A DNA stretch of 64,000 nucleotides. Origin: Psammoneis japonica (taxonomy: Eukaryota). The translations under genes were made by a program, and so were the position numbers. Below the pieces are notes generated by a model. It searched no databases and was not told where the DNA came from. It saw nothing but the letters and a program-made list of their open reading frames with translations. Below are positions 17,954 to 63,192 of this stretch, one piece after another. The stretch covers positions 1 through 64,000 of the forward strand of contig QPGO01000179.1 of the NCBI GenBank assembly GCA_008632985.1, given 5' to 3'. How positions within the stretch are numbered: position 1 is the first letter of the stretch; each line of letters begins with the position of its first letter.

Positions 17954-18405
17954 TGCAAATCAGACAATGTTGACAGGGCCTTCATCAAGACTCATGCTCG
18001 TCATCCTTGTCTTGTGGATGAGAAGGGAAAAAAAGAACAACACGCAAAAAATGGCGGGAAATTGGCAAACATTGCATTGTCTTCCAGATTGGGATGATTC
18101 TCACAGGCATGATGCATCTGCATTTTGATTTTTTATCTGGCATCCACAACGAACATTGTGCTTTTTATTTGCTGTCAAAATGCAGGATGCCATCTCCATT
18201 GAAGCGCAATGACAGCCACATCAAAAAGCAAGTTGGGCCACTCATTGTCATGTGTGAACACATTTTCAAATTTCAACGTTGCTGACAACAATTTGTGCAA
18301 TGTCACAGAGAAAAATAGAGTGCCTGGCTGTCTCAACACGACCCAAATGATGGTTGCACTGTCGAACAGCACCGCTCCTCTCATTGTTGCCGTGAAAAGA
18401 TCAAG

Positions 18406-26447: not shown

Positions 26448-27604
26448 GGGCTTCTTGGCAGGAACAATCAGAGACCGAGACTGACGACGGATTTATGCAC
26501 AATGAATGCCATCTATTTTAGAGCTATTTCTCGCTTCCTGCATCCGCAGCGCATTCCGGGCACACTTTGGCACGTCAAGTGGACCATCCGCTTGGGGGCT
26601 CAGACTCGAGAGCTCACACCATCCACTCGTGTCCTCAGCATCGCACATTCGCAGATCAAAGAAGCATGCCTGCATCATTTTTTGCATCACTCACCAATTC
26701 AGTTCTTCTCGTCTCTTGACCAAGTCCAGTGTGACGCGAACCGCGTCCAAGCCACTGAACAGTGCTTCACTTTTTTCGAAAGGCTTTGGGGTCATCAGCT
26801 GGGAAGGGGGAAAACCATCGAACAAGCGGTTGCTTCAATTTTGAACACTTCCGCACCAACAGCAGTGGACAACATGCTTGACCATTGCCATTCCAGCACA
26901 TGCCTTTTCAGGAAACAAGTGCCACAACAGCTGTGGGACTGAAGCAAATGGGGGGCGTTCCGCTCGATCGAGGAAATGATGGATGATGTCCCCACGCACA
27001 TTGGCAACCCGTCGTGCACACATGAGTCGCAACGGAGGTGTCTCAATCACCCCACTCGTCCAAGGATCAATGATGGGGATGCGCTGCAAGGAACAGGATG
27101 CATTGTGCGCACATGACTTGCCCACCCGCCTGAGCAAACGATCCAGGTCTGGGCGTCATCATGTCTGTCATCAACTCTGTCCTTGGCATTTGCTGGCAAA
27201 GTGCGCAGAAACGGGTGATGCGAATGAGGCTTGCTGCCAATTATGCGCCGATGGCAGTCGGAGAAGAAAACCCGAGCGGGTCACAACTGTGGAGACCCTG
27301 TGGCTCACCACACTGACACTGTGCTCACACTGTGAGGACAACGGAGTTTGGAGCACTGATCAAGGTGTTCCCTTCTTGTGCCTGAAAACACTCAAGCATT
27401 TTGCTCTTTCAGTTGACGAGACTGCCTTTCTTGGTGCTGTCCTTGAATTTGAAGATCCCCGTCAGGCAGAAGGAAGACCTCTCATGTGACTCAGCCAGTT
27501 GACCCTTGAAATGAAGCGTCAATGTGCACAACACCAAAATCGAATGACCACGACAGAAGCAGAACATGCAAAGGAAGCATTTGCCTGCAATCCGGGATTG
27601 ATCT

Positions 27605-27810
27605 TCAATGCTCCAAACTCGTTTCCAACTCTTGGAGACATTCCATGAAGGAGCAATTTGGTTGGATGCAACTCCAGCCTTTCTTGGCTAGCACCAATGC
27701 ATCAGCACGGCTCAGTGCAAACTTTTGCATCAAGTGTGCAACAACAATGGCCCCAGATCGCGAAACGCCCACACTGCAGTGCGCCAACACATGTTTGCCA
27801 CTGCGGACAT
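27605..27810 (-). pseudogene. dual-specificity protein phosphatase, C-terminal fragment
   Basis: VLAHCSVGVSRSGAIVVAHLM...IQPN.SFM..L matches the VLVHCxxGxSRS...AYLM...IxPN DSP motif. Confidence 0.85.
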
Positions 27811-27829
27811 TCCTCGCATTGTTTTCATC

Positions 27830-29870
27830 TGAATGTGGAAGACTCTGTTTGTTTCAAAAAAGTCGGGTTGCTGAGAAGACATGTCCCCACCCAGAAACGA
27901 GCCGCATCATTGAAAACAGTTGACATCTTGACGGTGCTGTCAAACACATTTTCTTCAATTTTGGGCACCTCATCCAACGAAGCTGCAAGCTGCCAAGCAT
28001 CATTTCCCAACATCAAATTTCTGTCAAATGTCATCGTTGAAAGCTGCACTTGAGTCATCAGTTTGTCCCAGATGACACCAGCTTGCGTCGGCGGCACCAC
28101 CTCAAAACATCCCTGCCACACCTCGCCTTGCATGCCGCCGGCAAACTCCTCCTGCCAGAAAAGAGCAGCAACTCAAATGAGGTGCAGTGGCTTGGTCGAA
28201 AGGAGAAATGTGTGCATCGCAGAGAATGCTTGCCTTTGGCTTTTGGAAAAATTGAGAACCGTTCACAGCCATGAAGTCTGTCTCTTTTGAAACATTGCCA
28301 AGAATGGCTTTTGCTGCATTTTCTGGGAGGCATTTGAACATTCCGTCATCTCCCACTGGTGAGCCGATCTTTGCGTCGTGCAGCTTTTTTTTTCACCTTC
28401 AATTCCATGTTTTCTGCCGCATCGTTGTGTCATGGATGTTTCTTTTTTGTCATTTTAGCCCAGATCAATGGTTTGAGTCGAAGGATGGTTTGGCAGCACA
28501 CCAACAGATGTGGCTTCGTCGTCTTGCATGAGAAGCATGATTGACTTGTGAAACTCCTGGTTGTCTGATGAGAAGGGTGACCGCGCCAATGAAGAACCTT
28601 GCAACAGCGTTCCTGCGCAAATCTCGCTTGTCCCGTTCATTGACTCTGCAGCACGTTTGATCAACAAGTCAATGGAGTCAAGCTGTGTGTTGCCGCCATC
28701 GCCACCAAGCATTGATGCGACAATTTTTTCAAGTTCGTCTTCTGTCATCTCTGAGTTTTCATCATTGTCAAAGACAAGCATTTCTCTGCAGTGGCCCATT
28801 CCTGCAGCATGAGATCTTCAAAGTTGTTCTCAGACGTGGCCGCCTTTGTCTCCTCCTTGCAATCAATCATCGTCATGAGTGCATTCCATCAAGTTTCGAT
28901 CCCCGCTTCACGTGGATCTCGGTTCTCTGACCTTGCTTGGCAAGCTGTTGCAACAGAGTTTTAGAGTCTTCTGCCACCACACACCAGGACTTTTGTTCCA
29001 ATTCATCCAAAAGTTGCCCAGCATTCCAACCACTGCATCCGCAGAACACCCAAAAGTTGGTTGAAACTGCGTCACCATCATCAACTGGCTTTCGAGCTCC
29101 TTCAAAAGATGTCCACTGCCGGTGAGTCAAAAAGAAAAATTAGACACAACCATCTCAGAAGTGCCGCAGAGATGAAAAAAAGCAAGTGATTGAACAAACC
29201 TCAACTCCATTCAGCACTGTCCTTGAAACCTCTTCAGCTGCACCACTTGTCAAAGAGTGCAGGCAAACAATCTTGGGATTTTCTGATGACAAACCTTTTG
29301 CGTCCCCACCAAACCAAACATGCCATTTGTTTTTCTCGTCGGCATTGTCCAATGGAGAACCATCCTGGCAAATAAAATCTTCATCAGATGGCACCAGATT
29401 TGTGGGGCGATTCAGTGTCACGCCCCTCGCAAACATGATTTCATCGTGTTCCAACACCAAAATTGCACATTTGTGAAAGCATTGTTGCTGCAATCCATTG
29501 CAGAAGTCTTGTTGCAGATGACTCAATGCAATTGAGCCTTCTTTGACAGTGTTGCCACTCTCATGAACCCACGATGCACCAAGCTTGCTCGAAGAAAGAG
29601 TGTTGCTAGAGTCCATCCGAGGCATTTTTGCCGAGATTGCCATTTCCAGTCACCAACTGTGCGCGAAATTGCCGCTGATCCTTGTCTTCAATGTTGATCA
29701 AGTCATCTTCATCATCTTTGTCTGGATCTTCAGAACTCATTTTGAGGATCCAGCCATGTTTCATTGGGTTCTGCACATTTCGTGAAGTTCTGCAAGAGAG
29801 CGATGCTTTGGCTGCAGAAAGGGTTGAACTTTGGCCAGCGACAACGTGACAAAAGAGATCTGGACAAGCA
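27830..29870 (-). pseudogene. tandem DUF179 (AlgH/UPF0301)-domain protein, TpA-mutated, intron 29116-29199 retained
   Basis: FRAQLV, QQCFHK.AILVLEH, LNRPT, VWFGGD, FCGCSGW..GQL..EL...SWC, and a second QEFHKS...SVGV..NHP. Confidence 0.85.
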
Positions 29871-31419
29871 TGGAGTGCCTTTGACGTGATGACTTTGTCA
29901 TCGCAGATTCTCTTGTCTCTGCAGTCTCCATTTGCTTTGCCATTCATGATGGTTTGTCCCATCATCACTGTCAGGGGCCGAGTGAGAGACCGTTTGATGC
30001 TGTCACATGGCAAGGTCACATGCGGTGGTGACTTTGGCAAAGAACCTGTCCATGTCGATGCAGCTTGGGACATTTGTTGGAAAAACATGGAGAGTGAAGA
30101 ACAAACCATCAAGCAAAAATGGAAGAAACTTTGGGTGACCAAGTGCAGGATTGTGAGCCAGGTGCACAAGAACATTCATGAATGGAGCATGGAAGTGAGG
30201 GAATGCATGCACACCACCCAGGCCATGTTCTCCATTCACAACAAGGATGAGCGTGCAAGTGTGATCACAGAGCATGCGAGGAAGGCTCACAGGAAGGCTC
30301 ACAAATCATGACAGTGTTGGAACTCAATGGCAACACACCCGGACAGGCAGGGAGAACAGTTTTGTGAAAGCGGCCAGTTGACCCACCCCATCAAAGAGAT
30401 GGCATGCCAGATGTTTTTGCAGCTGGATCAAGGGGGGGCAAGCTCCGTCTGGTGATTGACAAGCAAGACGCGGGTGGGTTGAGAGAAGAGTCAACCATTG
30501 GTTTGCTCACATGTGGAATGGACCAAGGCAGCAGATGCGGGCCACTTGCATTGGATGATGGTTTGGGAGGTGTGTGCTCACCAGTCATGGACAGAAAAGG
30601 CATCGTGTTTGATGCTTGGAAACTGGCAGAATTGTTCAAGCAACAAATGACATGAGACACATGCCACAGGTTGTGGCAGTGCAATGAATTGGAGTTCTTT
30701 TGAATTGACACAAAGGATGGTTGACAGTTGGACATTGGAAATCATCAAGAAAATGAACCCAGGTGTGGATTCCAGCCATTGTTGCAAGGATAAAATGGAG
30801 AGATGTTGGAAGAGACATTGTCCAAAAATGAAGAAAGAAAAGATCCGTCATCATCACGTGGAGCATTTTGTTGGTTGTGTTCATGAGGCAACAGATGCGT
30901 TTGATCGCATGACTGATTGCTCAAATGAGGGTGGGCACAGCAATTTTGTCTTTGTCCATTTAGAGGATGATGCTGTGGAAGAAGTGGGTTGGAGAGCGAT
31001 TTCGGCACCAAGCATCTGTCAGAGGTTAAGAGCTCATGAATGCGAGCTTCTGCCCTGTGTGGGGGCTGATGTTCATGTGTGAATCTGCACAATTAAAAGT
31101 TTCAAATGCAATGATCAAGTTGCACATCAAATTTGTCATTGACAATTGGCTGCAGTGTTTGAGTTGAACATTTCATCTTTTGAACTAAAACAAACACAAC
31201 CATGGATGTTGTTTTCAAAGAAAAATGATGAACATCAGTGTTTGTGATTGTTTTGGAAAGAAGTGCCAGCCAAAAATGCACAAGGAGGGGCAGCAGCATC
31301 ACCTTCAGAGTGCAGGAAACAGGTTTGAAATTTTGCAAAGCCGGTCTTCCTCTGAAGAGCTGTTGCACCACAGGATTGTGGCAAATGGAGAAACTGACAA
31401 CAACACAATGAGTTGAGGG

Positions 31420-32590
31420 CAATGGCAAGGAGGACAAAAGCAGCAAAGAAGGATGCTGCAGGGGCAGGGCCCAATGGCCCAAGGCTGACAGCGGTGTTGC
31501 AGGGGTTGGTGGCAGCGCTGATCACCAATCTCTGAAGAGAGAGGCGGAAGAGGTGGCATGGAGAGAGCTGTTCCCAAAGGCAAAATTCCTCATGAAGACG
31601 ACATGGCGAGTGGTGGCAAGGTGTCCCGGCTGGTGCAAAAAAACACAGCAGATGGCAAGTTCAGCAAACGCGAATGGGTGGGATCATGGGAGGACTGGGT
31701 GAAGAAAAGCATGCTCAATGCAATCAACGCAAAAAGAAACACCATGTGTCAGATGACAATGAAGAGTGCAATGAGTGGCAAGTGCAGCGGACTGGGGCAA
31801 AGCAGAAACAGGTGTGGTGCCACTGACAACTTTCTCATTTCACTGCAATCATCATGACAGAAAAACAAGCCGGGGAAATCTGCAGAAAAAGGAAGAAAGA
31901 GAAGCAAGGAAGAAGGCAGCCTGAAAAAAGCAGAAACAGAACAAAGCTGACATTGAAGAAACACTCCATGCAACTTGGGAGGATGGGACAGTTGACACCA
32001 CTGCACTTGAGAAGCAAAAGAACAGGGAGGTGTGCGCATGGTTCTACGACAACATCCTAAAATTCACGAAGAGCACTGCTGTGTGGAGAAGGATGGCAGA
32101 GTCTGGCAGCACACCAAGGCCACAGATCTGGCTGCGGCAAGTGACAGGCACTGGCCCTGTTGATGATGGAAAACTGCTGGAAGGTTTGGGAGCACAAGAA
32201 AGTGCAGAAGGGAAACAACAAGGGGAGCGAAAAGGACAAACTGGAGCCCTTGTACACAGACCCATTGCAACAGCGTGACTCTTGGAACGATGGAGGATCA
32301 GTGCACTTCAACGACCTGCTGAAGGAGGAAGAAGAAGACAGGGCAAGTGAGGATGGTGTGCATTTTGACATGTGGTGCACAGATGGAAAGAAAGAGGAGA
32401 GCAAAGGCAAAGGAAAAAAGGGAAGAAACACATTAAAAAACCAGCGGAATCGCAGACGAGAACGCAAGCGATGACACAGAGCTTTCTGGTGACGACGAGG
32501 AGGACGATGACAAAACGGATGAACCAGGTGGCAAAAGACATGAGGAGGAAGACAAAGCTGGCCAAGAAGGCAGCAACGGAAGTGTAAAAA
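31420..32590 (+). pseudogene. paralog of the transposon accessory ORF at 18406-19620
   Basis: ASGGKVS...WVGSWEDWVKK...INAKRNT; WFYDNIL; ENCWKVW; YT...SWNDGG..HFNDL. Confidence 0.65.
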
Positions 32591-34343
32591 GTTGGACTGC
32601 AGCACAAGCAAATTGGAAATGCAAAACAACCAGGGCTGCAGCATTGGCTTGGCATCGGTTGACGATCAACATCAAAAAGCCAAAGCAATGCATCGCTGTT
32701 GACTGAGAAGAGTGGACTGAGTTCATTGCATGTGTCAACACAAATGGCAAAACTGGTGCATGATGCAAAACAAACCAATGACATTGATTGTCAGCTGCTG
32801 TGGTTGACGAAGGCATGTGCAAAAAGGGAAAAGGGGGGGCTTTGGAGAGTTGAAGTTGTTTTCTCACAGACAAAAAAAATTCTCCACAGCCAAACAAATT
32901 GTCTGTGATGGATTAAATTTTATTGCCAGCTGCACAACCAACAAGGTTTGAAACTGTAAAAAGTTTGTCCACAAAAGGGACAAAAATCACTGTGAGAAGA
33001 CATGAGAGGATCGCTGCATTGCGGCATCTGATGTGGTCTGTCCCATTGCAAGCATTGAGTGACCCTGCTTGAGCCAGACCACTCATGTGGAAAGATTGCC
33101 AACCTGCTGCTCACAGAGATCACTGACACCACACCGAGAAGACAACAAAAACCCAGCAACATGCCGATCACGGCGCCAGAACAGATTCGGATCTCACGCG
33201 CACAGCCCTCGAAAACTGCGCGCAACAACCACCCCTCATTCGCATGACTGCATTAAATGCACGTTGTGCACTTAATAATTTATTTATCATGTGTGGCTGA
33301 AAGTGAGTACGAAATTTTAATGTTGATTGGATTGCACATGTTTGTGATATAAATCGACGCACTATCGTCAAAATTGGGTTGATATTTTGTACCATTGCAA
33401 AGATTTATGATTCAATTTTTCACACTATCACCAAAAGAGGTGAGAGATTTTGTAAGATTCAATTTTCGTTACTGTGGAAAATCGTTTTATGTTTTTATGC
33501 AGTCCCAGGGACACACGGCATTTTGTCGCATTTAGGTTTTGTCATAAAAAGACGCAATTGAGACAAACTGAAATTGTTCGCGATAAACAGGACAAGAATA
33601 TTGTAAAATTTAGCGAAAAATGTTTTATGTCATTATTTATGCACAACATTTGCTTTGGCGATGTCTTTTCGTTAAGTGTTGCATTTAACAAAATTTGGCG
33701 ATCTTTGTCATCGCCAAAACTTTCTACGACAAAATTTGTCGTGTGCGACACGACAAGACAAGACACGACACGTCACGACACGATTCACGAAAACAAACAC
33801 CCACGCACGGCGCGCGACTGAGCCTGTGGTCTCGGCGGACACCTTGTTTCTTGTGCACGATGATGATGCATCGACACATCGACGCGATGCGGCCCCTTCT
33901 GGCAGAATGAGGAGGAATGAGTTTTTCCATTAAATTCTCCATGTTGACATTGGTCGCAAACTGCTGCAAAGTGACCTTGGCCTTTGCTGTGGGTGCCTTG
34001 CAGCGCGCATTTGTGACCACACAAAAAAAGCACGACAATGCGATCTGCTGCGTTCTGCACATAAGATGCAACAAAGGGAGGAAACAACGTGACCATTCAA
34101 TCCACCATGTTTTCATTGGCCATGTGAGGTTCTACTTTTGCCTTGGACATCACTCCAGTCGCCTTGTGATTCGAATTTGTGATGACACGACACAAGAAGA
34201 GTGCTTTTCTGACAACCGATCCATTGCACAAGTGTTCTGCACATGTGAGCTGCCACATTTCACCTCATCTTTTGTGCTGTGGATGACATTCAATCAACAG
34301 TGTCGACTGTGTTGACTTGTGTCATGACCAGCCAACAATTGTT

Positions 34344-34741
34344 GACGGGTTCCAGCCCCAGGTGGGACTTTTTGTGACACTGGGCCCGCAGAATTCTACG
34401 TGCGAGCTCCGCAGCAAAATTGTTGAGCAATGCACAAATGAATGATTGCCAACAGAAAAAGAGGCAATTTTGCAAATGTGTTTCCTCCTCCACACTTGAA
34501 GCGCATTCTTTGCAGCATGCCCGGGTGTGTTCTTCAGACGTCAAAGAACACACCCAGCGCATTTTTGTTGTCACAAATGCAGACAACAGAAAGCCTTTGG
34601 CTTCGTAAAACAGGCAGTGTGGAACAATTCTTTACAATGAAACACGCAGAAATGTGCGTGTGAAACATGTGACGGATGACAAAAAACAATTGTGTCACAG
34701 TTCAGCAGTGCGAGGTCCCACCCAGAGAGCTGGAGCGCATC
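34344..34741 (+). mobile_element. ~400-bp MITE (family X, variant interior)
   Basis: Ends GACGGGTTCCAGCCCCAGGTGGGAC / GTCCCACCCAGAGAGCTGGAGCGCATC. Absent from the matching site of Z copy 2. Confidence 0.75.
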
Positions 34742-34916
34742 AATTGCTGTCGTAAAATGGATTTGAACACGCCATTGTGTGTCTTGCCCCTTTTGTTTGT
34801 TGTGGTCTGTGGTCATCTGGATGGAGCCTGTGTTGTTGTGTGTGGCTCTGAAGGGCCCTGCTGTGCAAGTGCGCAGGGCCCCACATGGTTTGGCACAACA
34901 CATTTGTCCTGCGTTT

Positions 34917-35305
34917 GACGGGTTCCAGTCCCAGGTGGGACTTTTTGTGACATTGGGCCCGCAGAATTCTACGTGCGAGCTTTGCAGTGCAAGAATTTAA
35001 TTGATGGATGTTTTTGTCTCCAACATCAAACACATGACCAAGTTTGTGGTGCAATTGTGCCCGTTGTCACTTGACTTTTTTGCAAGTGCGCCTGCCCTGC
35101 GTGATTCTTGAGACATTTGAGAATCGTGCTGCAAAAGAAATGTCAAAAGTTGTTGGACAGATTGCTCAACAAGCGCACCACAAAATGATGCAAAATCATC
35201 CCAAAATCACGCAGAAATGCGTGCGCGTGACATGTGGTGCAATCCAAAAAACTGTCGATGTCACAGTTCAGCAGTGCAAGGTCCCACCCAGAGCTGGAAC
35301 TTGTC
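34917..35305 (+). mobile_element. 389-bp MITE (family X), 4-bp TSD GTTT
   Basis: Imperfect ~25-bp TIRs with GTTT on both sides. The empty site is visible in Z copy 2 (~61980-62010). Confidence 0.85.
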
Positions 35306-38219
35306 GTTTGTCTGCTTTTGTCTGATTTTGTCTGCTTTTGTCGGCATTTGTTGCATGGTGTCGGCGTTTGTTGCATGGTGTCAGCATTTGTTGCAAGGTG
35401 TTGGCATTTGTTGGACGCATGACAAACTTGTTGTGCGCATGACAAAATTTGTTGTGCACAACAAATGTGTCGGACGCATGACAGGATTGCCAAAAAACAT
35501 TTGACGCACTTGTCTTCGCCAACAGCAAATTTGATCATTCATCCCTTGAGTGGCAGCATGTTTGTGAAGGAGACATGGCATCACCAATTAAATGTTGATT
35601 TTGTCTTGTTCATTGCCAATGATTGAAACCTGTCTCAAAGTGCGTTTTTCATGACAAATCGTCCAACTCATTTGTGGGAATGTTGCAATTGGCAACAAAA
35701 TGCTGTGTGTCCCAGGTGATGCTCTTCACACTGCAGTGCCATGATCACAATGTCACAAAACATCTTCACAACTGTGCCGCTGTTTGTTTCCGCCAGGTTG
35801 CAACCTCATCTGCAACAAACATCCATTTTCTCCTGCCATGTTGTTGTCACACTCCAGCTGTCGCCACACGTCTCGTCTGCCACCCATTTTGACAGGACTT
35901 GATTGCCAAAACAACAAAAATTCACGGCAACGTGTGCATTTCCAACCTGGTCAGCGTGTCAGCAAGAGGACCTTGACACACAAGAAGGTTGCTTCCATTG
36001 GACTGTCCCGCTGACATCAATCATTTGTTCTGCACTCTCGACACGGATGGATTTCTTGACACACTTCCAACTGGACAAGCTTTGGTCATCTGGCCAACAG
36101 CGCTGCATTGCCATTCAACAGTGAGCAAAAACAAACATCTGTCATCTGCACTGAGGGAGGTTGCAGAGGAATTGTCACTGCAGACAGCCAGACCAAAAGA
36201 GGCTGATGCTGGGAGAAAATCTCTTGCCAGGAAAAGGAAGTGCGTGCAAGATGACAACTCATTGGAAAAGAGCGCACCTGCTGATGTGGTTTGTGGTCAT
36301 TCTGTTGGTTCCTGTGTGGAGGGACTTTCAAATCAATGAAGGACATGTCAGCAGACTTTCGACTGCACTCAGACCGCTTTGGACAGTCAAAGTCCATCCA
36401 TCCATTGTTGTTTGGTCCTTCTTCAAGACAAGATTTGCAAACCTCCAATGACAGCAAAATTGGAAATTCTGCAAAAAACACACAAGATGACACAAGTGTT
36501 TGTCAAGTGCCAGTTTCTTCCACAAACACCGTTGTCCAACAACTGCCAGAAGGAACATTTGGAGACGACTGTTGCAATGAGCCCCTTTTTGCTGATCAAG
36601 CGGTGTTGGACAACCATTGCTTCGGATGTTGCAATGCCTCATCAGACTTTCTTGAGATCTGCGCTGCCGAGAACGTTGTTGTCAACAATGACACATTGGT
36701 TGTTGGCCTTGTTGTTGGCAACAAGATGACTGACACATCCACCCAGGAATGCAGAGATGCCGCAGTTTGCAAGGCACTGGTCAAAAACAGATTCAACGTC
36801 CACACTGTTGACTGCCATCACACAGACACTCTAAATCCCAATTGCGTGATCGTCGGTGCATGGGCTCTCAACCAATGCAACAATTGGGCTGCCACGGAAT
36901 GTGCCCATGACTCAATGTCGATGGACATTGTGTCCATGACCAAATGGCATTTCAACGACAGTGTCTTGACAGATTCTTTTTTCAGTCATTCGTCAACTTG
37001 CTTCTGTCAAAAGCTGTTGGATGTTGGCAATGTGTTTTTGCCAGTCAACCCAATGACAGCCCATTGCCTTTGTGAAAGCTGGGCTGTGGTTGGCAAAGTG
37101 TGGATTTTCAGGCACTTGTGCCATGATCAGTTGGAGAAAATGCCTCTTTTCCATCCATCTGCAGTTGCACACCTGCGCTGTCACGGAAAGGAGGGAGGCA
37201 TGCATCCTCATTGTGAAAAGATCATGGAGTGACATTGTCGGAGGTGTGTGTGTTGTTTGGCTTTTTTGCACTGGCTCATCCTTTTGGTTGGCAATCACTG
37301 CTGGGATTTTGTTGTTTTCTAGATCAAGGACTTTGTCTCCAACAAAAATCATGAACCAGTTAGAACATTCCCACTGGCCATTGAGAAAATCAACTGCGTT
37401 GGCTCTTGCTCCACAAAGAAGCAACTGCATTGCTGCCACTTGTGAGGTTGCAAATTCATTGCAGGCAGGCAAAGGTGTTGATGGCAAGGTTTGTGCAAGA
37501 CACTCCTTTGAACATCTAGAAAGCTGTGCAATCTGTCCGATGTGCTGTCAGATGCCACTGCAAAAAGGCTTGGACTGCCAAGTCTCTTGTGGACAGTGAT
37601 CACAAGCCAGACAAAGCTTTGGTGCAACAGATGCAAATTGCGGTCGCTTGGGCAGAAGGAGCAAGTGCAAGACTGGGGAAATCAGCATCGCGGACATTCT
37701 CAAGCAAAAAAATTGCAGCTGTTGGGCAAAACAGCACCAACCGCTGGACACCCCGAATGGGCAAGACAACAAGCACTGGAGAGCCACCTCATTCTTCCCA
37801 ATGGACAAGAAGAAGTCACAAGCACAGTTGTTCCCAGATTTTGATCTCACCAGTTTTGCAAAAGATCAAAAATTCATGGAAAAGACAGCCGTTGTTTGTT
37901 GAGAAAAAACGTGGATGCCAGATTCAAGTGCATTTCTGTTTGCACTTGAGCTGGCATGCATCAACAGGATTGGAGTCTGCAAATCAACTTGCATCAGATC
38001 TTGGCGGTGACATTTGTGTGTTGCCAAACTCGCGCAATCATCCTCATTTGTCATCATGCCCAATGGATCTGATCATCATTGATGGGCACAATGTCGCTGG
38101 TGTTGGTGCTCCTGCTGATGGCAAACCTGTTTTTCAAATGCTTCAATTGCCGCCGGATGTTGCCAAAAAGAACCTTTTGTGTCTAACTGCCAGAGTTGTT
38201 GAGGATGGGTTGTGCAGTG

Positions 38220-38770
38220 GACTTGGAGATGAGTTTGTCACCCTTTCAAAAGCAGACAAATGCAGAAAGTTTTGCTCCATGGACAGTGGGGTCAATGCAG
38301 CTGGTGGGAAATGGGGCAGAAGCTGTGGTGTGGGAGTGGCAATGCCGGGATGCCCACCCAGAGCAACTGACCAAGCATCTCCAAGGTTGTGTCAGTGGAT
38401 GCTCCAGCTCTCTGCAATGGCAGTGCATGGCACATGCTGTGGGATGCTTGATGGAACGCAACGATTGCAACAGGGTGCAACAAGTGCCATGAGATGAAGG
38501 GTTGCCTCAAAATGTCAAAGATGGCCAAGGTGCCCCGACAATCTGTGGGACGTTCCACGCACACACCTCCCCAATTGGAGCAGCAACTTGGCATTCAGAT
38601 GCAAGCAATGGGAAGGACATTGATCACGATCACATTGCAATGGCCTCACACTTTGTTGAGGACTGGCCCATGTTCCCATCCAAAAAAATGTCAACAAGCT
38701 CATGGAGAATTGTGCGCCAGCAACAAACAGATGCTTCGCTTGCTTGTTGCACACTGGGTTGATTGTTGAC
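38220..38770 (+). pseudogene. degenerate paralog of the TET/JBP-like domain at 53890-54600
   Basis: Colinear motifs DEFVTL~GEFVHI, GVGVA..P..T...M..LS~GGGYA..P..T...M..MS, WHSDASN~CHVDDLN, SLACCT~SLIGYS. By-eye alignment across frames. Confidence 0.45.
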
Positions 38771-39109
38771 AGCCAGTTAAAGAAGCTGGATTTAAGTGTG
38801 AATTGTCCTCATGTGGAGTCCCTGGTTGCAGCACCAAAGGAACACTTGGGTGCCATTTGCCTTTGCACACTCATCACCCAGGAAGAAATTGCCAAGGTGA
38901 CGGAAAGGATTCTGTCTGCCGGCACATCCGATCACTGCAGCGAAGGGAGGTGCGTCAAGATGAAGAAGGGTGAGACTCAAATGACAATGCTTGGGTGCAT
39001 TGCGTGGCTGTGGATTCTGTTTTGTGGTTGCTGCAATGAAGCTGTTTGCCTCCAACACACTGCAGAGCACAAAAGGGATTGGTTTGCAGGAAACGCAACA
39101 GAACACCTT

Positions 39110-40126
39110 TGAAAGCTTGGAATGGGCAGCAGCCAGGAAGGGCTGTGTAAATTCCAGGACTGAATTGAATTGAGCTGTTGTCTTGCATTCATTCCAGCAC
39201 ATTAACACCCGGGTTGCTTTGGTGTGTTGAGTCTTGCTGCACTCAAGTTGAGTCAATCAAAACGCTCTGCCCACACCAGGTGAAAAATTGCCCTGCATGG
39301 CAGCTCATCAAACAGTGTGGGCAAAGCTGCATGATGACGACATTCAAGCAAATGGTCACTCTCCAAACAAATCTCCCTTGTGCAGCTTGTGACTTTGTGA
39401 GCTGTGCAAGGGAAGTTCACAAGCAACACAACGTGACCTTTCACAGCTCACCCTTGTGCAGCTTGCACTTGTGACTTTCCAAGCTGCATGAGGAAAGTTC
39501 ACAAGCTGGGCGATGCAACTTTTTGTTGCTCACCCTTGTGCAGCTTGCAACTCTGTGAGCTGCGTGAAGGAAGTTTGCAAGCTGCATGATGCTGCTTTTC
39601 ATTGCTCACCCTCACGCAGCTCACAACTTTGTGAGCTGCACAAAGCATTGTTTCATGTGCCACATGGCAACATTCTTTCAACTGCTTGACATGAGTCATT
39701 TTTCACAATGGCGAATTTGCACGCACAACTCCCAGACATTGCTTGCTCAAAACAACACAATGAAGCAGACCACATGACAGCAGCAACAGCAGATGCTGGG
39801 TTGTGCCACCAAACCTTTTCCCACAAAAACACCAACACATTGCATTCCACATTTTGCTCTGGCAAGCATGTCCATGAAAAGATGCATGTGTGCTTGACCC
39901 TGTTCATGGTTGTGGATTGAATGGCATGCCATGCATTGTTGAAAGCTTGAAATGGGCAGCAATTGGGAAGGGCTGTGTAAACTCCAGGATTGAATAGAAT
40001 TGAGTTGTTGTCATGCATCAGTTCCAACACTTTAACATCCGGGTTGCTTTGGTGTGTTGACTCTTGCTGCGCTTGAGTCAAGTCAATCAAAATGCTTTGC
40101 CCACACCAGGTGAAAAATTGCTGCAT
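39110..40126. repeat. ~190-bp direct repeat (39110-39298 and 39940-40126) enclosing ~4 short CCCTTGTGCAGCTTG-type repeats
   Basis: TGAAAGCTTG.AATGGGCAGC...CCCACACCAGGTGAAAAATTGC occurs twice. Confidence 0.85.
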
Positions 40127-41887
40127 GCACTCTTTTTCCATTCTTGCACACAACACACGCAAGTGAAACCCGGAGCATCAGGGATTGTCTGCCATGGCAG
40201 TTGAGGTGGTGGCACTGTGATGTGGCACATCAGAGGGAAACTCTGCAACCACAGAAATGGTCTCACTCTTGCTGCAGTTGCAGTTGTGACAGGCCCAGAA
40301 GCACCTTGTTGGTTGCACTTGCGTTGTCACACCAAGACTGCTGTGAGCAGCTGAGCCTGTCCAGCTGCTGGATTTGCTTGCTTTGTCAGAGCCAAGCTGT
40401 TGCTCACGTGTTCAGTTTGACAAAAAAACAACAAACAACTGTGAAGAGACAATCGCGCCATGATGGCAGGGTCATGACGACAAATGCCAGTTGATTGAAG
40501 GGTGCGCAATGATTGTTGTCACCTGGCATCAGCGAACATGCAAGCAGTGAGGAGACATGGCAAATCTCCATGCCTCCAATGGCCATGTGTTGTCATCAGC
40601 ACAAAATTGAGACATCATCTCATCATGTGATCTCTCACACAACTCTGTTTTTCCACTGGCCCAGGCACCACCATGGCGGCTGCTCCTCTGGATCCAATCA
40701 AGACAGCTCTTGAATGGATCAGATTTGTTGATCCAGCTCAATGAGTCTTGCTTGTGGCAGATTTTGCATCTTTCAATGATTTGGAAGACCTTGAAGAACA
40801 AGGTGTTGACTCTTTTGCATCATCATGTGCTGGAAGCACAGTTGCTGAAGGGTGCATTCTCACTTGGTTTGGCCTGCAGTCACCAACTCAAGGCTCTCAT
40901 CCATTGGGCTCAGGACTTTGGTCACATGAGTGAAGATCCTGCCCTTGATGGGCTTGATCAGGCAACTCTTTGTGCTGCACTGTAGACGGCACTCAGTCGT
41001 GCTGAGAGCTGCCACCAGACTGAGGCCACTGCTGAATCTTCTGGCAAAAAGGCATCACCTGGGATGTTGGAGAGCAAGAAGGATTGGGTTGAACGGTGCG
41101 CTGGTTTGACAACCTTGCTTGGCATCATGCTGGGAGTCTCTGGCATGCCGTTGGTGCATTGCACTCGTCCCAATGATGAGCCTGAACCTGAAGGTCACAA
41201 CACTTTTGTCCAGAATTGCACTGCACGTGCACCTCTTGAAGGTTCTGTTTTTGAAGCAGACACTCGTGCAGCTCACTTGTTGATTGAATCCCTTGCTGTG
41301 GGGGCACCAAGCAAACAGTGGTTGAAAAACCACAAGGATGAGCAGAACGGATGAGTGGACTTCAGAGCATGGTGCAACCACTGCCAGGTAGAAGGAAACA
41401 CATTCCATTGCATCTCTAAAGCCAAGCACACTCTCCACTGCAGGAGCAAGCGCACTGTGCCTTTTGAGTCATTCATTGACAAACTTCAAGAAATGTTTGG
41501 TGTCTTTGAAGAGAATGATGAGCCAAAGACAGAGGCCCAGAAATTGTGCAAGCTGCAGTTGAACCCTTGAAGGCACACAACAAGTTTGGAGGAGGAATCA
41601 CATTTGCTGTGGTGGCTGACCATCTTGCTGCAAAGGTTGCCACTCTTCCAGAGATGATTGCACACTGTCATGCCATGGCCACAGTTGCCTCTGGAGGAGG
41701 AAGAGAGGGTGGCACCATCTGCAACAACAAAGGATTCATTGGCGCTGGATGCCACAAGGATTGGCGCCAGTTGAGCAAGGAGGACAAACAGTCTGGGTGT
41801 TGCCAAACAACCCAGAAACCCCAAACGCCACACTGCATCTGTCAAGTTGCTCATGAAGAAGAATCAGAAGCTGTTGTTGCAGCTTGA

Positions 41888-42392
41888 GGCTGGATTGTTG
41901 TTTTCCCCCCCTTTTTTTTAAATGGCTTGCAATTTTTGAATTTTTCCACACTTTGCCTGCGTTGCTCAGCGATGCCTCTGAGCACCCCCAAACACACATG
42001 AGTGTGTCCAACCCCCATCAGGGCTGTCAGACCTCTGTGTGAACTGTGCACACTGACCTTCAAATGTCAATTGTCACATTTGTCACATGGAAAAACCGCC
42101 ATTTTCTGAAAAGGTTGGGCTGTTTGTGTTGCAGACAAGCCACAGCTTTCCAGGAAATGCCAACAATTGGCTTTTGACTGGCCATGGACACATTTGCAGT
42201 CATTGAGCTGCACATCGTGCATGGTTGCAACCATCACATGTGAGCCCCATGATGTCCCACAAACAGACAAACTTCAGCCTGTTGATGAATTGTTTTTTGG
42301 CAAATGTGCACATTGTCAAAGTGACAAATCTGGTTTGTTTTTAAACAACCACAAGCTCTAAACAAAATCAACCACAAAATGACAATCCATCC
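41888..42392. mobile_element. 505-bp TIR element at a former TTAA site (GG...CC ends, Kolobok-like)
   Basis: GGCTGGATTGTTGTTTT / AAAATGACAATCCATCC flanked by TTGA and TCAA. Confidence 0.7.
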
Positions 42393-42396
42393 TCAA

Positions 42397-42893
42397 CCCT
42401 TCAACCACCGGACGTGAGCAAATCTCAGCGGGTGGAGATTTGCTTGTTTGTGTCATAAATGTGACAAATGTGGCATTTCCAGATGTGAACAACAAATGAT
42501 CCGCGTGAATTTGTTTTGGAGCACGCATTTGCTGAAAGCTCTGGGGGGGACCATTTTTGCAACCAAGAAGTTCAATGTTGACTTTTGACACAGGGTTTTT
42601 TGCATGCTTCATCCATGTGCAGAGAGGAGCCATTCTCAACCTTTGACAATGAAATTTGCAATGTGTCGCCATCACAATGGAGTGGCAAATGCCACACTCT
42701 TGGAGCAAATCTCTGCCGGTGGAGATTTGCTTGCAATGAGCAAATGCCTGTGGTGCGTTTTACGCAGATTGCACATGATGTGACATTTTCATGACATGTG
42801 CACTGCATTGTCATTCAAATGCATGACACATCACAATTCCTTGAGCAGAGCAAATCTCCACCCATGGAGATTTGCTCTGTGGTGGTTGAAGGG
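42397..42893. mobile_element. 497-bp piggyBac-like MITE (CCC...GGG ends, former TTAA TSD) with three GAGCAAATCTC..GAGATTTGCT hairpins
   Basis: CCCTTCAACCACC / GGTGGTTGAAGGG flanked by TCAA and TTGA. Confidence 0.8.
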
Positions 42894-45800
42894 TTGAAGA
42901 AGTGAGCTGCAAAATCTCTGCCTTGAACGCCAGCATCAACACTGACTCTGGTGCAATGGCAGTTTGGGGCATGACGCTCAAGATGGGCACAATGTTGGGG
43001 ATGCATTTGGTGGTCACAGTGGAAGGTGCAAGGGAAAGTGGAGTTGACTGCCAAGCTGGATCCTGCTCAGCAGCATCTTGGACCTCATTCTGTGGTTGCC
43101 ACATTGGGCGGGAGACAGCCATGTCAATCAGAGAAACAAAATCCATGCGGTTGTTGCCTTGACATGATGCATCTCAGCAGTGCCATCTGACACACAAGTC
43201 ACCCACACATGAAATGGATTTGCATGCTGACGCCACAGTTTTTGGTCAAAACTTTACCCTCTCAGGTTGTTCTGGACAAGAATGCAATGTGTCGCCTTTC
43301 AATGAGGGGTGCAATTCCATCAAGAGTGTCCTGACAGTTTTAGCGGCCACAGTGTGGATGTCACCAACATTGGGAGCAATGCTCACTCTGGTCCTCAACC
43401 AGGGCTTGTTGATGCCTGATTCCATGGAGAACTTGTTGGTTGACCCAAACCAGCTGCGGCACTTTGGCATCAAGGTTCAGGAAAATCCCTGCTCTGACTT
43501 GCCACTGCACATCATCCTTGCAGAGGACAAGTCATTCATGATGCCACTTGAAGCCACGGGGACCAACATTGTTGCGTTGCGGCAACCCACACTCCCACAG
43601 AGCAGGGCACTGGCACGAATGACTTAAGATCCAGATGACCTCCCAACAACCTTGGAATCCACAGACCATGAAGCTCAAGTGTGTCAATGTGGAAGCAGAG
43701 TCGGAAATCCAGATCTCCACATTGGAAGCCCAGATCTCTGCCATGGAGGCAATCAGTGAAGGACAAGAAAGACTCAGTGCTCCAAAAGACTTTCATGCCT
43801 GAGGAGAGGCATGGCAATTTGTTGGCCGCTGACCACTGACTCAAGCAAACAACGGTGCATCAGGCTCAAGCAAATGGCAAACACGCTCAAGAAGACCACA
43901 CAAAGACTCGTCAGATCAGCACCAACGCTGGAGGTGGCTGATTGGGGATGTCTCAACATGGAAGTTGCACGTCCATCAAGAGATGACAATGGCCCTGAGT
44001 TTGCTTTTGTGTCACAAAGAGGTTGAGAGATGCCAATGACAATCCCATCCTTGACACAAGGGTGCGCGAGGCAGAGCACGCTGACGGGCATTGCACTGTG
44101 CTCTCAGCTGACTCCATTGCTGTGAGAGTGTTTGCACAGATTGTCAAGGTTGGGAGTCGGCACCTCCCATTTGATGAGATGGCAGATTGCTGTGCAAATG
44201 GGGACATTCCAGAATCTGTGTTCTTCAAGACTGAGCTGGGCATTGGGAAGATGCGCAAGTCCGCCAAAAGGATGGGAGCTTGTGCTCCAATGGAAGGATA
44301 GAAGCACAACATGGGTCAACTTGAAGGACGCCAAAGACAGTTTTCCTGTGCAAGTTGCCAAGTTTGCCATTCAATGCAGGATCTTAAAGAAGGTGGCATT
44401 TGCTTGGTGGGTCCTCATGTTGTGAGAACTTGCAAGCATTCCATTGCAAAGGTCAAGTCAAAGTGCTGGCTTCCAACACATGAGTTTGGCACTTGGATTC
44501 TGAAGAGCATCAAGGAGGCAATTCAGATCAATTGTGCAAATGGCAACACCCTCTGGCAGGATGCCCGCTTGCATGGAGATGAAGAATGTGTGGGTTGCTT
44601 TTGAAAAGTGTGAAGGGGAGCTTGATGACATGGTGCCTGGGTTCCTGGAAGTGAAGTGCTGTGTGACTGCTGCACACACACCCCCCCCCCCTGCACACAT
44701 CACCTGCTCTTCTGTTGTCTCTCCACATTTGGCCAGAAATTCGCTCATGCTTGCAGCGCTCAATGACTTGCAAGTTTTTGCACGCTGCATCCAGAAAGCA
44801 TGCCTTGCTGCCCGTTGCAGGGAGAAGATTTGGACTCATGCAGGATCTGAACTTGGTGAGGATGAAGGCTGCATCATGATTGTGGTCAGGGCTCTGTGTG
44901 GATTTGAGAGTTCTGGAGCAGTGTTCAGAGCATTTCAAGTGGAGACGCTTTGTGAGCTGGGGCACAAACCAAGCAAGGCCGATCCGGATGCATGGATGAG
45001 ACCTGTGGTGAAAATGGATGGATTCAAGCACTGCAAGTGCACCCCAGTTTATGTTGATGGCATGCTGTTGATTGGTCATGAACCCACAAAGATGATGAAT
45101 GGCATCAGGTCCAACTTCAAGCTCAAGGGTGACAAGGCAGCTGAGTCAGATTTTCATCTTGATGCCGCACTTTGCAAGATGATTTTTTGCCAGTGGGGCT
45201 GCATGTTGGGCCATGTCTGCAGAGAACTGCTGCAAGGCCGCTGTTCAGAATGTCAAGGATGGACTTGGCAAGGAAGGGAAAGGTCTGCCTGGCAAGGCAA
45301 CAACACCGCTGAGCAGCGGGCACAAACCCAAGTTGGACATGACTGGCAAATGAGATGCCAAAGGACTGATCCACTGCCAAGAGTTGACTGGCATGTTGGT
45401 TTGGGCTGCAGAACTTGGCAGAGCTGACATGCATTTGGAAGCTTCATTGATGTCTGCTCACCTTGCACTGCCTTGCATTGGCCACCTGGAACAGGTGCTG
45501 TGCATCTTTGTGCATCTCAAACAGGTTCCAAAGCACCAAATTGCATTTGACCTGGCTCATCCTGAGACAGATGAGTTGCAATTTGTGAAGTGCGACATTG
45601 ACGCAACTTTCACTGGCAGCCATCCCAACCAATGTGCTGCCTGCTCAAGGCAACACAGTGTTGACACATTGTTTTGTGGATGACAGCCATGCTGGCAATG
45701 TTGCTGATCATTGCAGCCATGCAGGCATCTTGACATTTGTCAATCAGGCACCTTTCATGTGCTGGCACTTGAAGCGTCAGAATGCTGTGGAGGCCAGCAC

Positions 45801-47209
45801 ATTTGGAGCTGAGATTGTCATGCTCAAGAATGCTGTTGAGATCACAGAGGGTTTGTGATGCAAGCTTCAAATGTTTGGTGCACCAATCAAAGGGCCAACC
45901 AATGTCTTTTGTGACAACAAGGCCATCTGCAAGAACTGCTCCATTGCTGAGTCTACACTCAAGAAGACACATCATTCCATGGCCATTGGGATTGTGAAGG
46001 AAGGAACAGAGACAAACCTGAGCAATCAGTTCACAAAGATTGTGTCATCCATCAGACGGAATTTTCTGTTGGACAAGTCCATGCATTGAGTTTGGTGTGT
46101 GGAGCAGTGGTGATTTTCTTCCCCAGCAAGGGTTTGCACCATGCTCAAAGATTGTGGTTGGTGATTTTGTCCCCAGCGAGGGTTTGCACATGCTCAGAGA
46201 TTGCAGTTGTTGTTTGGGAGATGCTGGGTCAGCACCAGGATGAATTGTCCCTGCCAAGTCTGCCAGGAACACTTCAAGGGGACCAAGTGAGCTCTGGAGC
46301 ATCAGGGATTGTCTCCTGTGCTTTGGTGCTCTTGTTGCAATTGTGGTTGCAACAGGCCTGGAAGCATCTTGTTGGTCACATTTGCGTTGTGGCACCAAGA
46401 CTGTGAGTGGCTGAGCCCATCTGGCAGCTGGATTCACTTGTGCAATGCCATGCAGTGGGCATGCAGTCTTGCAGCCAGCTGGTCTACAACCACCCTTGAC
46501 GAGAATGTTCAACCAAAACACTTTGACAATGTTTTCCCACTCACACAAATGTCAATCCAAACACATGTGCTTTTCCATCATTGGATGTTTTTTGACTTGT
46601 TTCTGTTGCTTTGGCAATGGTCATTGCCACAGAACACTCTACACAGAATCTGAGAGTTTGTGGCAGTCAGCAGCTCCAGGAGAGATGGAGAGAGAGAGCA
46701 AAAGAGAAGAGCAAAGGAGAGAGGAACAGCTTTGGCCTGTGACAAAAAGCCCCCCCCCCCCCCCCCCCCCACCTGCAACATTGACGTTGTGGAAAACATT
46801 GCTTGTGCATTTGAGCCTCCTTTGAATTTGTTGAGACAGCCTGTCAGAGCCAATGGGGGCTGGCATCCTGGCCAGGCAAAAGTTGGCAACTGCAACAAAA
46901 GGTGGTGCCCAAAGCTGCAAACCCAAATCTGAGTTGCTGCAAGGTCTCACACCTGCTCTTGAAAGGCAGAACAGCTGTGCTTGAGTGTTTTGCTTTTTCC
47001 AATGATTGCAAGCACCAGCCCTTTTGACTGCAGGATGATGCTGTGGTTGTCTTGTTTGAAATGCAGGTTGGCGCAATTGTGCGGTGCAAACACAGGCCAG
47101 CTGCGCTCACTTTTGCATTCAGAGAGACCCTGCAGCACCAAGACAACAGCTTTTTTCCCCCCTGCAGCTGTGTGACAGAAGTCATTGCACAACTTTGGGT
47201 GGGGATCCC

Positions 47210-47387
47210 AGCTGCTGTTGTGCAGTTTGACATGGCAAGAGGCACAGTTGCACCACAAACTTGGTCGTTCATTTTTGATGTTGAAGCCAAATGTGTCTGT
47301 TGATTAAATTCTTGTGCTGTGGAGTGCACACATGGAATTCTGTGGGCCCAATGTCGCACGGAGTCCCACCTGGGACTGGAGCCCATC
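47210..47387 (-). mobile_element. truncated MITE (family X)
   Basis: GTCCCACCTGGGACTGGAGCCCATC end plus the adjacent interior shared with other copies. Confidence 0.7.
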
Positions 47388-48699
47388 CAGCAGTGCACAT
47401 GAGAGCATTCGAGTTCCACACTTGCTGTTGGATGTCTTGTCATTTGTGCCACTGCTTTGGACCAATGGCACAGCATGTGCTGGTGATTTGGAGATTTCAG
47501 GTTGCACGCCACTCTCCACCATGCTCAGATTCAGCATTCTTTGTTTTGAAGAAGGCCTGGCAAAAGAAAACTGGGAAGAAGCCACACAGCCACAGAAGGG
47601 GCTGCACACACAAAGCTGATTGATTCTCGGACGATGTTGCACTCTCGTCAAGGAATCATGTGTGTCAACTGAAATGGCCAGTGCTTTGCACAGGGCCAAG
47701 ACTGCATGCCATGTGCTGTGTGCCATGCCCACTCCATCAAGAGTGTCATCAGCGATTCTCCCTTGTGGTGCATCCACTTTCCAAATTGATCACTCAGACT
47801 CACAAAGTGTGTGTCGTCAACTTCCATGTGCGTCTTGTCTCAACCCCCAACATCGCCCCATTGTTGTGGCTGCTGAACCAAATTTTGTTGTGCCTCAAGC
47901 ACCCACGAAACATTGCAAAACACACATTGAAATTTTGCTCAAGAAACTTGATGAGTGGCTCAATGTGGCAGCCAGGAGGTCGGGTGAGACGGTGCTGAGA
48001 CAGAGCTGGAAATGAGCATGAAATCAAGTCAAGCTGGCTGTCGTGTGCCAGAGCATTGAATGCATCAAGCATGAAGCTCATTGGTCTTCCACTCAACTCA
48101 CAACATGTGTCTGCACTGTTGCCCGGCTCATCAAAGCACCCGATGATCTCGGTCAGGTTCAGACCTTTTCCGCACCTTGTTCAAACTCATCTTTGCACAC
48201 CGGATCACGGCCATGAAAGCATTGAACGTAAACAAATTAGGAAGAACAGGGTCCAACAAACACTCGTTGGTGTTGAGGCATTCATTGTGAGCTGAGACTA
48301 ACAGCGTGAAGCGTGAGCGACCGATCTTTTTTTTTCGTTGCTCGCTCGTGTTAATTGTCTCGCGCGCAGTCAGCATCCTGTGAGTTCGCTTGGCGGTTTT
48401 TTGGGTGCGAAAGACAGAAGAAAGTTTTTTTTGCTTCCAGCCACGTGGCTTGTCTCTCGTCCACAAGTGATTTTGAAATTCGTGAATTTGCTTCCAAGAA
48501 AATGACGATGAGCATGTTCAATAACATAACGTTCTACCGCTACCGGTACAAAGCAGCAGCGCGCAGTACGACAAGAGAGGGTAACATCCGTTTCCAGATT
48601 CGAGAAGTGACTTTACTGCACCTAAGGCTTTTGTCGCCCGTGAATGACAGAGTCCAGCACAAGGCTTCACGTGTTGCGTGTTGCCGATTCGCGATTCGA

Positions 48700-49275: not shown

Positions 49276-49293
49276 TGGATGTTTGTGTCTTAA

Positions 49294-54904: not shown

Positions 54905-54927
54905 TTCTTAAAATCTTTGAAGTTCTG

Positions 54928-61340: not shown

Positions 61341-61559
61341 AAATTTGAATGTTTTGCAACACTGACAACACTCATGTCAGTGTTTCAACGTCACTGTTTT
61401 TGTGCAATCTATGTTTTTCATGGCAGCAAATGAGTTGCAACACAACAGGTGATTTTCAGCAAAACTGCTGCATCATTTTGATGTTGACATGAGCAATTTT
61501 TCTGCACTGCCATCTGGTGTGCCTTCTGCCTGCAGACAATGCTCTGCATGCAATGCGTT

Positions 61560-63078: not shown

Positions 63079-63192
63079 TGATGCACAATCAGGGTGCACA
63101 ATCAGCGCTGAGTTGGCTGAGGGAGCTCATGACGACACACGTCCCATGAGGACTTGCATGCCAACAAAAAAACCAATTGAATGTTCACACTT

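Follow-up and report, generated by a model that had tools for sequence, protein, structure and literature searches.

Hypermutation of foreign DNA by A:T→G:C changes specific to TpA has been reported only since 2026, from mutation-accumulation lines of one alga. There, Mettrop et al. (bioRxiv 10.64898/2026.01.13.699255) describe TpA hypermutation of integrated nucleocytoplasmic large DNA virus (NCLDV) and virophage DNA in Bigelowiella natans, with 230/231 A→G/T→C gains in two integrated viral regions, all at TpA. A hypermutated viral region of 186 kb is reported as single-copy, the TpA-depleted coding sequences of the genome have a mean TpA frequency of 0.0018 and are enriched in transposase and reverse-transcriptase domains, and an ADAT2-like adenine deamination is the authors' proposal, not demonstrated there (10.64898/2026.01.13.699255). 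A full-text literature search for a process turning TpA into CpA or TpG returned this preprint only. Here we describe a 64-kb stretch of DNA (the window: positions 1 to 64,000 of contig QPGO01000179.1, deposited under Psammoneis japonica) that holds two copies of a transposon, element Z, whose left ends differ at TpA sites. The process has been described only recently, and the Z pair offers an internal control for it and a way into its targeting.

The process in the window appears to match the TpA→TpG/CpA hypermutation of B. natans. A:T→G:C transitions at TpA are seen in the left end of Z, in the composition of the transposon-filled regions of the window (below called deserts) and in 34 CA↔TG swaps in the rest of Z; the products lie on both strands (4 TG and 4 CA in Z copy 2, equal CA and TG in the deserts); and mobile DNA is hit regionally while genes are spared, with sharp steps at the edges of the gene blocks and deserts that contain transposon relics. 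According to the preprint's main text, B. natans likewise shows TpA→TpG and TpA→CpA changes on both strands, regional action with sharp contrasts and spared host genes, and the long-term mark is the same, namely TpA depletion with CpA/TpG enrichment. The TpA frequency of its depleted coding sequences (0.0018) is of the same order as that of the deserts here (110 TpA in 41,124 bp, or 0.0027). The two cases differ in that ongoing mutation was measured in B. natans, in viral regions still at 3.3% and 9.2% TpA, whereas here it is read from the sequence alone, and in that the depleted 1-kb windows make up a 5% tail of that genome while ~41 of the 64 kb are saturated here (TpA observed/expected, obs/exp, 0.03–0.05). 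The targets here are decayed transposons in which CpG has decayed too, and small exempt islands are not described in the preprint's main text. The window would show the end state of such hypermutation, with ~95% of TpA gone from all transposon DNA and razor-sharp gene edges. The scale of depletion here, and the genes' long open reading frames, which run without interruption while B. natans is rich in introns, suggest a different organism. If it is indeed not a Bigelowiella, the system would be widespread and able to run to saturation.

Three better-known processes resemble the pattern in part. Fungal repeat-induced point mutation (RIP) also riddles inserted transposons with dinucleotide-specific transitions that involve CA/TG and TA and leave genes alone, but its polarity is opposite: RIP converts CpA to TpA through C→T changes and so enriches TpA, whereas here TpA is turned into CpA/TpG and erased. 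We rejected RIP, as the repeats in the window are depleted of TpA at least 20-fold and enriched in CA/TG. Methylation-dependent deamination of CpG does appear to have acted, since the deserts have CpG at 0.31–0.48 of expectation with CA/TG as product while the island described below and the gene blocks stand at 1.0–1.3, like unmethylated islands. Such CpG decay comes on top of TpA loss as a second process, varies from desert to desert, and spares in Z copy 1 a zone ~600 bp longer than the TpA-exempt one. Adenosine-to-inosine RNA editing of the ADAR type, which prefers a 5' U, would also give A→G after T (U), but its traces would reach genomic DNA only by the retro-copying of elements, and then only on the sense strand. 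The process in the window changes DNA in place, once elements have inserted, and does so on either strand; retro-copied editing is therefore excluded: a DNA transposon with terminal inverted repeats and whole deserts are hit on both strands equally.

The two copies of element Z

We call Z an old non-autonomous transposon with terminal inverted repeats, of unassigned superfamily, from the structure of its ends (Table 1). All four termini align over ~100 bp and have GGGACACAYRGCATTTTGT in common. The two copies occupy unrelated sites, and copy 2 shows the empty sites of two insertions, N1 and N2, that are nested in copy 1. To compare the copies, positions 33480–35740 were aligned pairwise by MAFFT with the reverse complement of 61540–63100.

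Over 33506–33725, 215 positions are aligned and 28 of them mismatch. Ten TpA of copy 1 are aligned, and copy 2 reads TG at four, CA at four, TA at one and GA at one of these; the sole TpA in the left end of copy 2 is the one shared, and the reverse case was found 0 times. Where copy 1 has A or T, copy 2 reads G or C at 8/21 positions in TpA context and at 5/120 elsewhere (Fisher p = 5e-5), so that 8 of the 13 A/T→G/C transitions in the left end lie in TpA context. CpG behaves in the same one-sided manner: six survive in copy 1 alone, with TG in copy 2 at four of them and CA at two, and none survives in copy 2 alone. Outside TA and CG sites, the left end (13/215, 6.0%) has diverged about as much as the rest of Z (90/1163, 7.7%), which argues that it is not a younger graft. 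The Z pair provides a before/after control in non-coding DNA, and codon selection cannot explain the pattern for that reason.

The original prediction had listed five TpA changes and one retained GTAA between the copies, and the alignment recovered every one of them: GATAAA/GACAAA at 33584, AATATT/AACATT at 33599, TTTAGC/TTCAGC at 33611, TTTATG/TTCATG at 33638, TTTAAC/TTTGAC at 33686–7 and the kept GTAA at 33604. The pairwise alignment that it had proposed as a check thus bore out the TpA differences, which are one-sided in favour of copy 1. It had also placed the left end of copy 1 in a TA-keeping island of ~450 bp, which is real and whose limits we refined to 33254–33726. Every test that was run agrees with the core reading, that this left end keeps ancestral TpA which became CpA/TpG in copy 2 and lies in an island spared by a general loss of TpA; to call the comparison direct evidence of change was an overstatement, as two copies by themselves give no direction.

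The direction of change, namely loss of TpA from copy 2 and its retention by copy 1, is supported by convergent indirect lines rather than by a full family consensus. A gain of TA as well as CG by copy 1, starting from CA/TG, would take transitions of opposite kinds over a short distance; the two decay processes that mark every desert suffice for the loss of TpA and CpG alike, and loss in copy 2 is therefore favoured. In the alignment of the four termini, site 33584 reads TA in the left end of copy 1 (L1), CA in that of copy 2 (L2) and TG in both right ends (R1 and R2). Judged from these four states, one step from TA explains them all and no other ancestor does. L1 reads CG at three CpG sites (33516, 33553 and 33581), where the states of all four termini together imply a CG ancestor. 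The six copies or fragments of family N, to which N1 and N2 belong, have two alignment columns with TA, CA and TG, one more that also has CG, and ten with CG, CA and TG.

The rest of Z points the same way. It contains 34 adjacent CA↔TG double transitions between the copies where ~9 would be expected from CpG decay, while other adjacent double transitions are few (AC/GT 5, CC/TT 5, AT/GC 3 and three more types with 1 each). In 33726–34340, 18 CA↔TG swaps stand against ~1.2 predicted by CpG decay. Because these swaps far exceed CpG decay, both copies would have lost TpA independently after they separated. If as many hidden concordant losses as swaps are counted, the ancestral TpA of 33726–34340 come to ~38 in 615 bp (6.2%), a normal density. 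On this estimate, TpA survival in copy 1 falls from ~10/12 in the left end to ~3/38 in the next 615 bp (p = 1.6e-6).

Taken jointly, these results make it probable that copy 1 represents the 'before' state at 33533–33687 and that a TpA-loss process produced the difference. In the sequence of events that we propose, the Z copies would have separated and then each been struck, independently and in place, by a TpA-specific A:T→G:C process, copy 2 over its full length and copy 1 everywhere but its first ~220 bp; those ~220 bp and ~250 bp of flank would form a sharply bounded patch that was largely spared. By analogy with the proposal for B. natans, the chemistry is most likely adenine deamination in T-A context. 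No gene for an ADAT2/TadA-like deaminase was found within the 64-kb window.

A family consensus with CA/TG at the differing sites had been named in advance as the sign that would overturn the reading. This sign is unsafe, because ~95% parallel loss saturates the copies, and a consensus of decayed copies would read CA/TG even if the ancestor had TA. The valid sign of a TA ancestor is the occurrence of both CA and TG at one site. Over 33230–34345, contigs at a likeness of at least 80% amounted to 165 pieces from X1, with none from X2 or X3 (X1–X3 being public runs of one DNA sample); among the matches listed, only copy 2 matches 33534–33647 at this level, so that the left-end comparison is one of two copies. 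At 33650–33671, 2–3 further contigs were found besides copy 2 among the matches listed, and a left-end consensus was not obtained.

The TpA-keeping island and its escape

Of the island, 252 bp lie in the flank and the remaining ~220 bp are the start of Z copy 1. There are 29 TpA in 33200–33699, compared with 61 in the surrounding 21.1 kb (26600–33199 and 33700–48199; ~0.3 per 100 bp). Its edges are sharp, the right one to within ~25 bp. CpG is at 1.32 of expectation, with 16–17 CpG in 470 bp, against 0.31–0.48 in the deserts around, and this loss outside and retention inside is what the sequence of an unmethylated CpG island would show. A predicted fold pairs 33259–33285, at the left edge of the island, with 33625–33650, inside the left end of Z; the paired stretches form an imperfect inverted repeat around GTTGTGCA / TGCACAAC, and the pairing may be chance.

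Two causes were rejected. Refractory sequence context does not account for the island, since by context the desert regime would be expected to leave only ~3 of its 29 TpA; 7/29 are in the contexts most fully erased elsewhere (3 ATAT, 2 GTAC and 2 ATAG). A sequencing or assembly artefact was also rejected: contigs from a public run of the same organism match 33230–33533, 33504–33775 and 33923–34302 with 0 differences and at single-copy depth (60–67), in island and desert alike, although this run may be the assembly's own source, in which case the agreement is not independent support.

The retention of CpG does not end with that of TpA. The ratio of CpG kept by copy 1 only to CpG kept by copy 2 only is 21:2 over 33506–34310 and 8:10 over 34748–35716 (Fisher p = 0.0017), and the surviving fraction of CpG in 33727–34340 is 0.86 for copy 1 and 0.44 for copy 2. 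How the mutator finds its targets can be approached through the exempt island, the ranking of sequence contexts given below and this difference in reach between TpA and CpG protection.

How the island escaped can be read in several ways. The one to which we lean, at somewhat less than even confidence, is a local chromatin state, open, transcribed or protein-bound and unmethylated, that would exclude the mutator or allow repair. Such a patch would act as in the gene blocks, where the protected zone reaches less than 100 bp beyond two start codons in the upstream direction. One open and unmethylated patch, however, fails to explain both limits, because the CpG-exempt zone outreaches the TpA-exempt one.

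Also possible, though we hold it less likely, is that the mutator reads chromatin at near base-pair sharpness and that the island is an unannotated functional element in heterochromatin. Candidates for it would be a short transcription unit, a promoter at the transposon end that is bound by protein, or a boundary. In such a case the TpA-exempt zone of 470 bp and the CpG-exempt zone of ~1 kb would point to two separate silencing-linked mutation processes of different reach. If the island is indeed such an element, micro-islands across the genome would provide a sequence-only map of regulatory elements and of the rule by which the mutator is targeted.

An unlikely reading is targeting that depends on repeats or homology, by RIP-like pairing or small-RNA guidance, with the island spared since the left end of Z and its flank are low-copy. 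Over 33230–33685 the summed contig depth is 88–272, or 1.5–4 copies at a single-copy depth of 60–70, and the match of 33534–33647 to copy 2 only (among the matches listed) agrees with this. Depth then steps to 1116 at 33686–33723 and 5190 at 33724–33761, no more than one 38-bp bin from the island's last TpA (33725), and most of 33838–34330 lies at 450–1714. But the peak at 33724–33799 is a simple repeat of (CGACA)n type, and 33800–33837 has a low depth (99) and yet lies outside the island. Conversely, the flank at 33382–33457 has 4–5 look-alike contigs elsewhere in the genome, 4 of which read TG where the island reads TA (33426–7), and still keeps TpA. Contig depth is in any case a poor measure of copy number and covers only the part to the right of 33230, and the hypermutated 186-kb region of B. 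natans is, as noted, reported to be single-copy.

We give little credence to a historical cause, in which 33254–33726 would be younger DNA, brought in by later insertion, recombination or gene conversion from an unmutated Z, with less time to lose TpA. The sharpness of both limits would suit it, as would the partly decayed look of the island (TpA obs/exp 0.56, CA/TG 1.48) and the position of the right limit, which adjoins a site (33725/6) where the copies differ in length. Across this limit, however, copy 2 still aligns, and the length difference is a tandem unit (ACAAAATTTGTCG...) present three times in copy 2 and once in copy 1. Younger DNA would also sit badly with the like divergence of the left end and the rest of Z outside TA/CG sites, with CpG protection that extends past the island to ~34300, and with the inclusion in the island of DNA outside Z, which conversion from another Z would not carry.

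Purifying selection on a functional sequence, such as a small RNA gene or a regulatory element, is less probable again. Both TpA and CpG are kept in the island, and it folds somewhat better than its shuffles (z = −3.1 on the plus and −3.3 on the minus strand), but the two strands give a similar folding signal, as DNA inverted repeats do. Rfam gave nothing at gathering scores in the whole window and three weak matches (E 0.19 to 3.8) in 33100–33900, the best of them to a bacterial CRISPR repeat model; no tRNA was found in a tRNA search; and a Pfam scan of four open reading frames (ORFs) of the island and four of Z gave a single match, at E = 0.086 and below the cut-off, with no real match for the island and no family for Z. 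Half of the island is a transposon end whose other copy decayed freely, and selection acting on 29 separate TpA and 16–17 CpG in 470 bp is implausible. In addition, the gene blocks have their highest TpA in non-coding stretches, which points to regional exemption rather than selection.

Several observations weigh against taking the left end of copy 1 as the 'before' state. Just two left-end copies are compared, and direct polarisation is available for a single one of the ten TpA sites, 33584. At 33533–4 and 33545–6, within the terminal repeat, the other three termini all read TG, and plain parsimony over the four termini favours a G→A gain in copy 1; retention there needs two or three parallel like losses, which is not unlikely at ~95% loss. 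Site 33533–4 also adjoins a 25-bp deletion. The island is not pristine but partly decayed or odd in composition, its CA/TG being above the genic 1.15–1.20, and the protection of CpG in copy 1 runs ~600 bp past that of TpA. The first of these, the two TG sites and the AT-richness of the island (GC 0.33) would also suit a local C→T process at CpA/TpG, RIP-like or AT-biased decay, that made TA in 33254–33726 and left copy 2 ancestral; this we consider the most improbable of the readings, since a C→T process would destroy CpG where six are kept against TG/CA in copy 2 and none in reverse, site 33584 reads TA/CA/TG/TG, a TpA of 0.56 (not above 1) with CA/TG of 1.48 (not depleted) is the opposite of the RIP signature, and a second process of opposite polarity would have to be confined to 470 bp in a genome whose repeats lose TpA.

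Gene blocks, deserts and surviving TpA

The window is eukaryotic nuclear DNA in two compartments, gene blocks and transposon-filled deserts (Table 1). Its overall obs/exp values are 0.22 for TpA, 1.57 for CpA, 1.55 for TpG and 0.60 for CpG. In the deserts ~95% of TpA is lost to CpA/TpG on both strands and CpG is partly lost too; CA and TG counts are equal in 10/10 desert segments. Pfam identified both domains of anaphase-promoting complex subunit 4 (APC4) on the minus strand at 5893–7792 and coatomer beta C-terminal domains at 23190–23938. The best relatives of the APC4 are 48% identical, and an atlas search with a coatomer fragment resolved no further than Eukaryota. The highest TpA values of the gene blocks are found in their non-coding stretches (obs/exp ~1.0 at 4251–4500, 23876–24500 and 53876–54125), so the contrast with the deserts reflects regional exemption and not codon selection.

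TpA protection of the gene blocks stops ~45–80 bp upstream of two probable start codons. At the APC4 edge the start codon is probably at ~7615, the last TpA upstream is at 7658 and the next one at 8116; for the ORF at 24912–26492, with its start at ~26447, the last upstream TpA is at 26525. The exempt unit of the gene blocks looks like the transcribed region and not the promoter.

Table 1 Features of the window, with their positions and dinucleotide composition
Feature	Position	Strand	Remarks
Z copy 1	33506..35716	+	non-autonomous transposon with terminal inverted repeats
Z copy 2	61559..63080 (reads 63080-61559)	-	TpA-depleted over full length, TpA obs/exp 0.03-0.05
Left terminal inverted repeat, Z copy 1	33506..33605	+	starts CAGGGACACA; aligns with reverse complement of right terminus and with both copy 2 termini
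Right terminal inverted repeat, Z copy 1	35620..35716	+	TpA-depleted
Left end of Z copy 2 ('after' state, as read here)	62839..63080	-	aligned to 33506-33725; 1 TpA and 4 CpG, against 10 and 10 in copy 1
Z copy 1 segment with TpA lost but CpG kept	33727..34340	+	~3 of inferred 38 TpA survive
Nested insertion N1 (family N) in Z copy 1	34341..34740	+	absent from copy 2; CAATTG on both sides
Nested insertion N2 (family N) in Z copy 1	34912..35304	+	absent from copy 2; CGTTTG on both sides
Family N copies/fragments	34341-34740, 34912-35304, 56784-57170, 57279-57483, 63200-63585, 47233-47387		
TpA- and CpG-keeping island	33254..33726	.	29-30 TpA, GC 0.33, TpA obs/exp 0.56, CpG obs/exp 1.32
Island part outside Z	33254..33505	.	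AT-rich; no ORF, Pfam or Rfam match
Gene blocks (n = 3)	1250-7600, 20000-26500, 48400-55500		TpA obs/exp 0.55-0.64, CA/TG 1.15-1.20, CpG ~1.0
Deserts (n = 4)	7700-19900, 26600-33250, 33701-48200, 55600-64000		TpA obs/exp 0.03-0.05, CA/TG 1.65-1.84, CpG 0.31-0.48
TpA desert left of island	26600..33253	.	TpA obs/exp 0.04, CA/TG 1.65, CpG 0.48
TpA desert right of island	33727..48200	.	TpA obs/exp 0.04, CA/TG 1.84, CpG 0.31

The few TpA that survive in the deserts depend on their neighbours. Survival was calculated for the deserts (7800–19600, 26600–33250, 33730–48200 and 55800–64000) relative to the gene blocks, and was highest for TTAA (0.34), followed by CTAA (0.13), by GTAA, CTAG, CTAC, ATAA and ATAG (0.03–0.08) and by GTAC (0.008). 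ATAC and ATAT were at 0, with none among the 110 desert TpA and 109 and 39 in genes. This ranking suggests that the mutator prefers R-T-A-Y and disfavours T-T-A-A, and as a lead it would fit an ADAT2/TadA-like deaminase.

Further searches bear on Z and its nested family. Seven pieces of Z and of its flank, compared by BLAST with the whole window, matched only the two Z copies, and no likeness to the island flank turned up. A metagenome scan with the terminal-repeat motif gave six loci that matched in the motif region only, with TpA at ordinary levels (obs/exp 0.53–1.0), and these were set aside as chance matches. No target-site duplication is recognisable at either Z copy. The CAGGG start of Z is reminiscent of hAT termini. 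Family N is a small element with terminal inverted repeats, ~390–400 bp long, whose termini contain CAGGTGGGAC and which is represented in the window by six copies or fragments; the direct repeats flanking N1 and N2 are 6 bp.

Besides Z and family N, the desert relics include a weak match to RVT_2 (copia-type reverse transcriptase) at 44504–45427 on the plus strand, degenerate and below the Pfam cut-off (E = 0.0022), which is consistent with deserts filled by decayed retrotransposons. CpG decay is patchy between deserts, with 0–2 CpG per 200 bp at 8001–10000 and 44000–47000 and 6–11 at 12000–19600 and 26600–29900, while TpA is near zero in all of them; TpA loss is thus faster than CpG decay or separate from it. 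The TpA-depleted stretch 30000–33000 has a strongly purine-rich plus strand (GC skew +0.20 to +0.25, AT skew +0.15 to +0.35) and is probably a decayed element; three ORFs from it had no match in Pfam.

Inside the TpA-keeping block 48400–55500, long ORFs of 716 and 304 aa lie on the minus strand at 51889–54907. Neither belongs to a Pfam family, and for the 716-aa ORF no homologue was found at E ≤ 0.001 among proteins of 393–1253 residues (7999 candidates scored). Two 69-nt direct repeats, 96% alike, adjoin these ORFs at 54996 and 55213. Either an orphan host gene or a mobile or viral insertion too young to have been mutated may lie here.

A stop-to-stop scan returned 154 ORFs of at least 120 aa in the 64 kb, mostly spurious. 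Many false long ORFs arise in the deserts because TpA depletion leaves TAA and TAG nearly absent, which makes such deserts a trap for gene callers.

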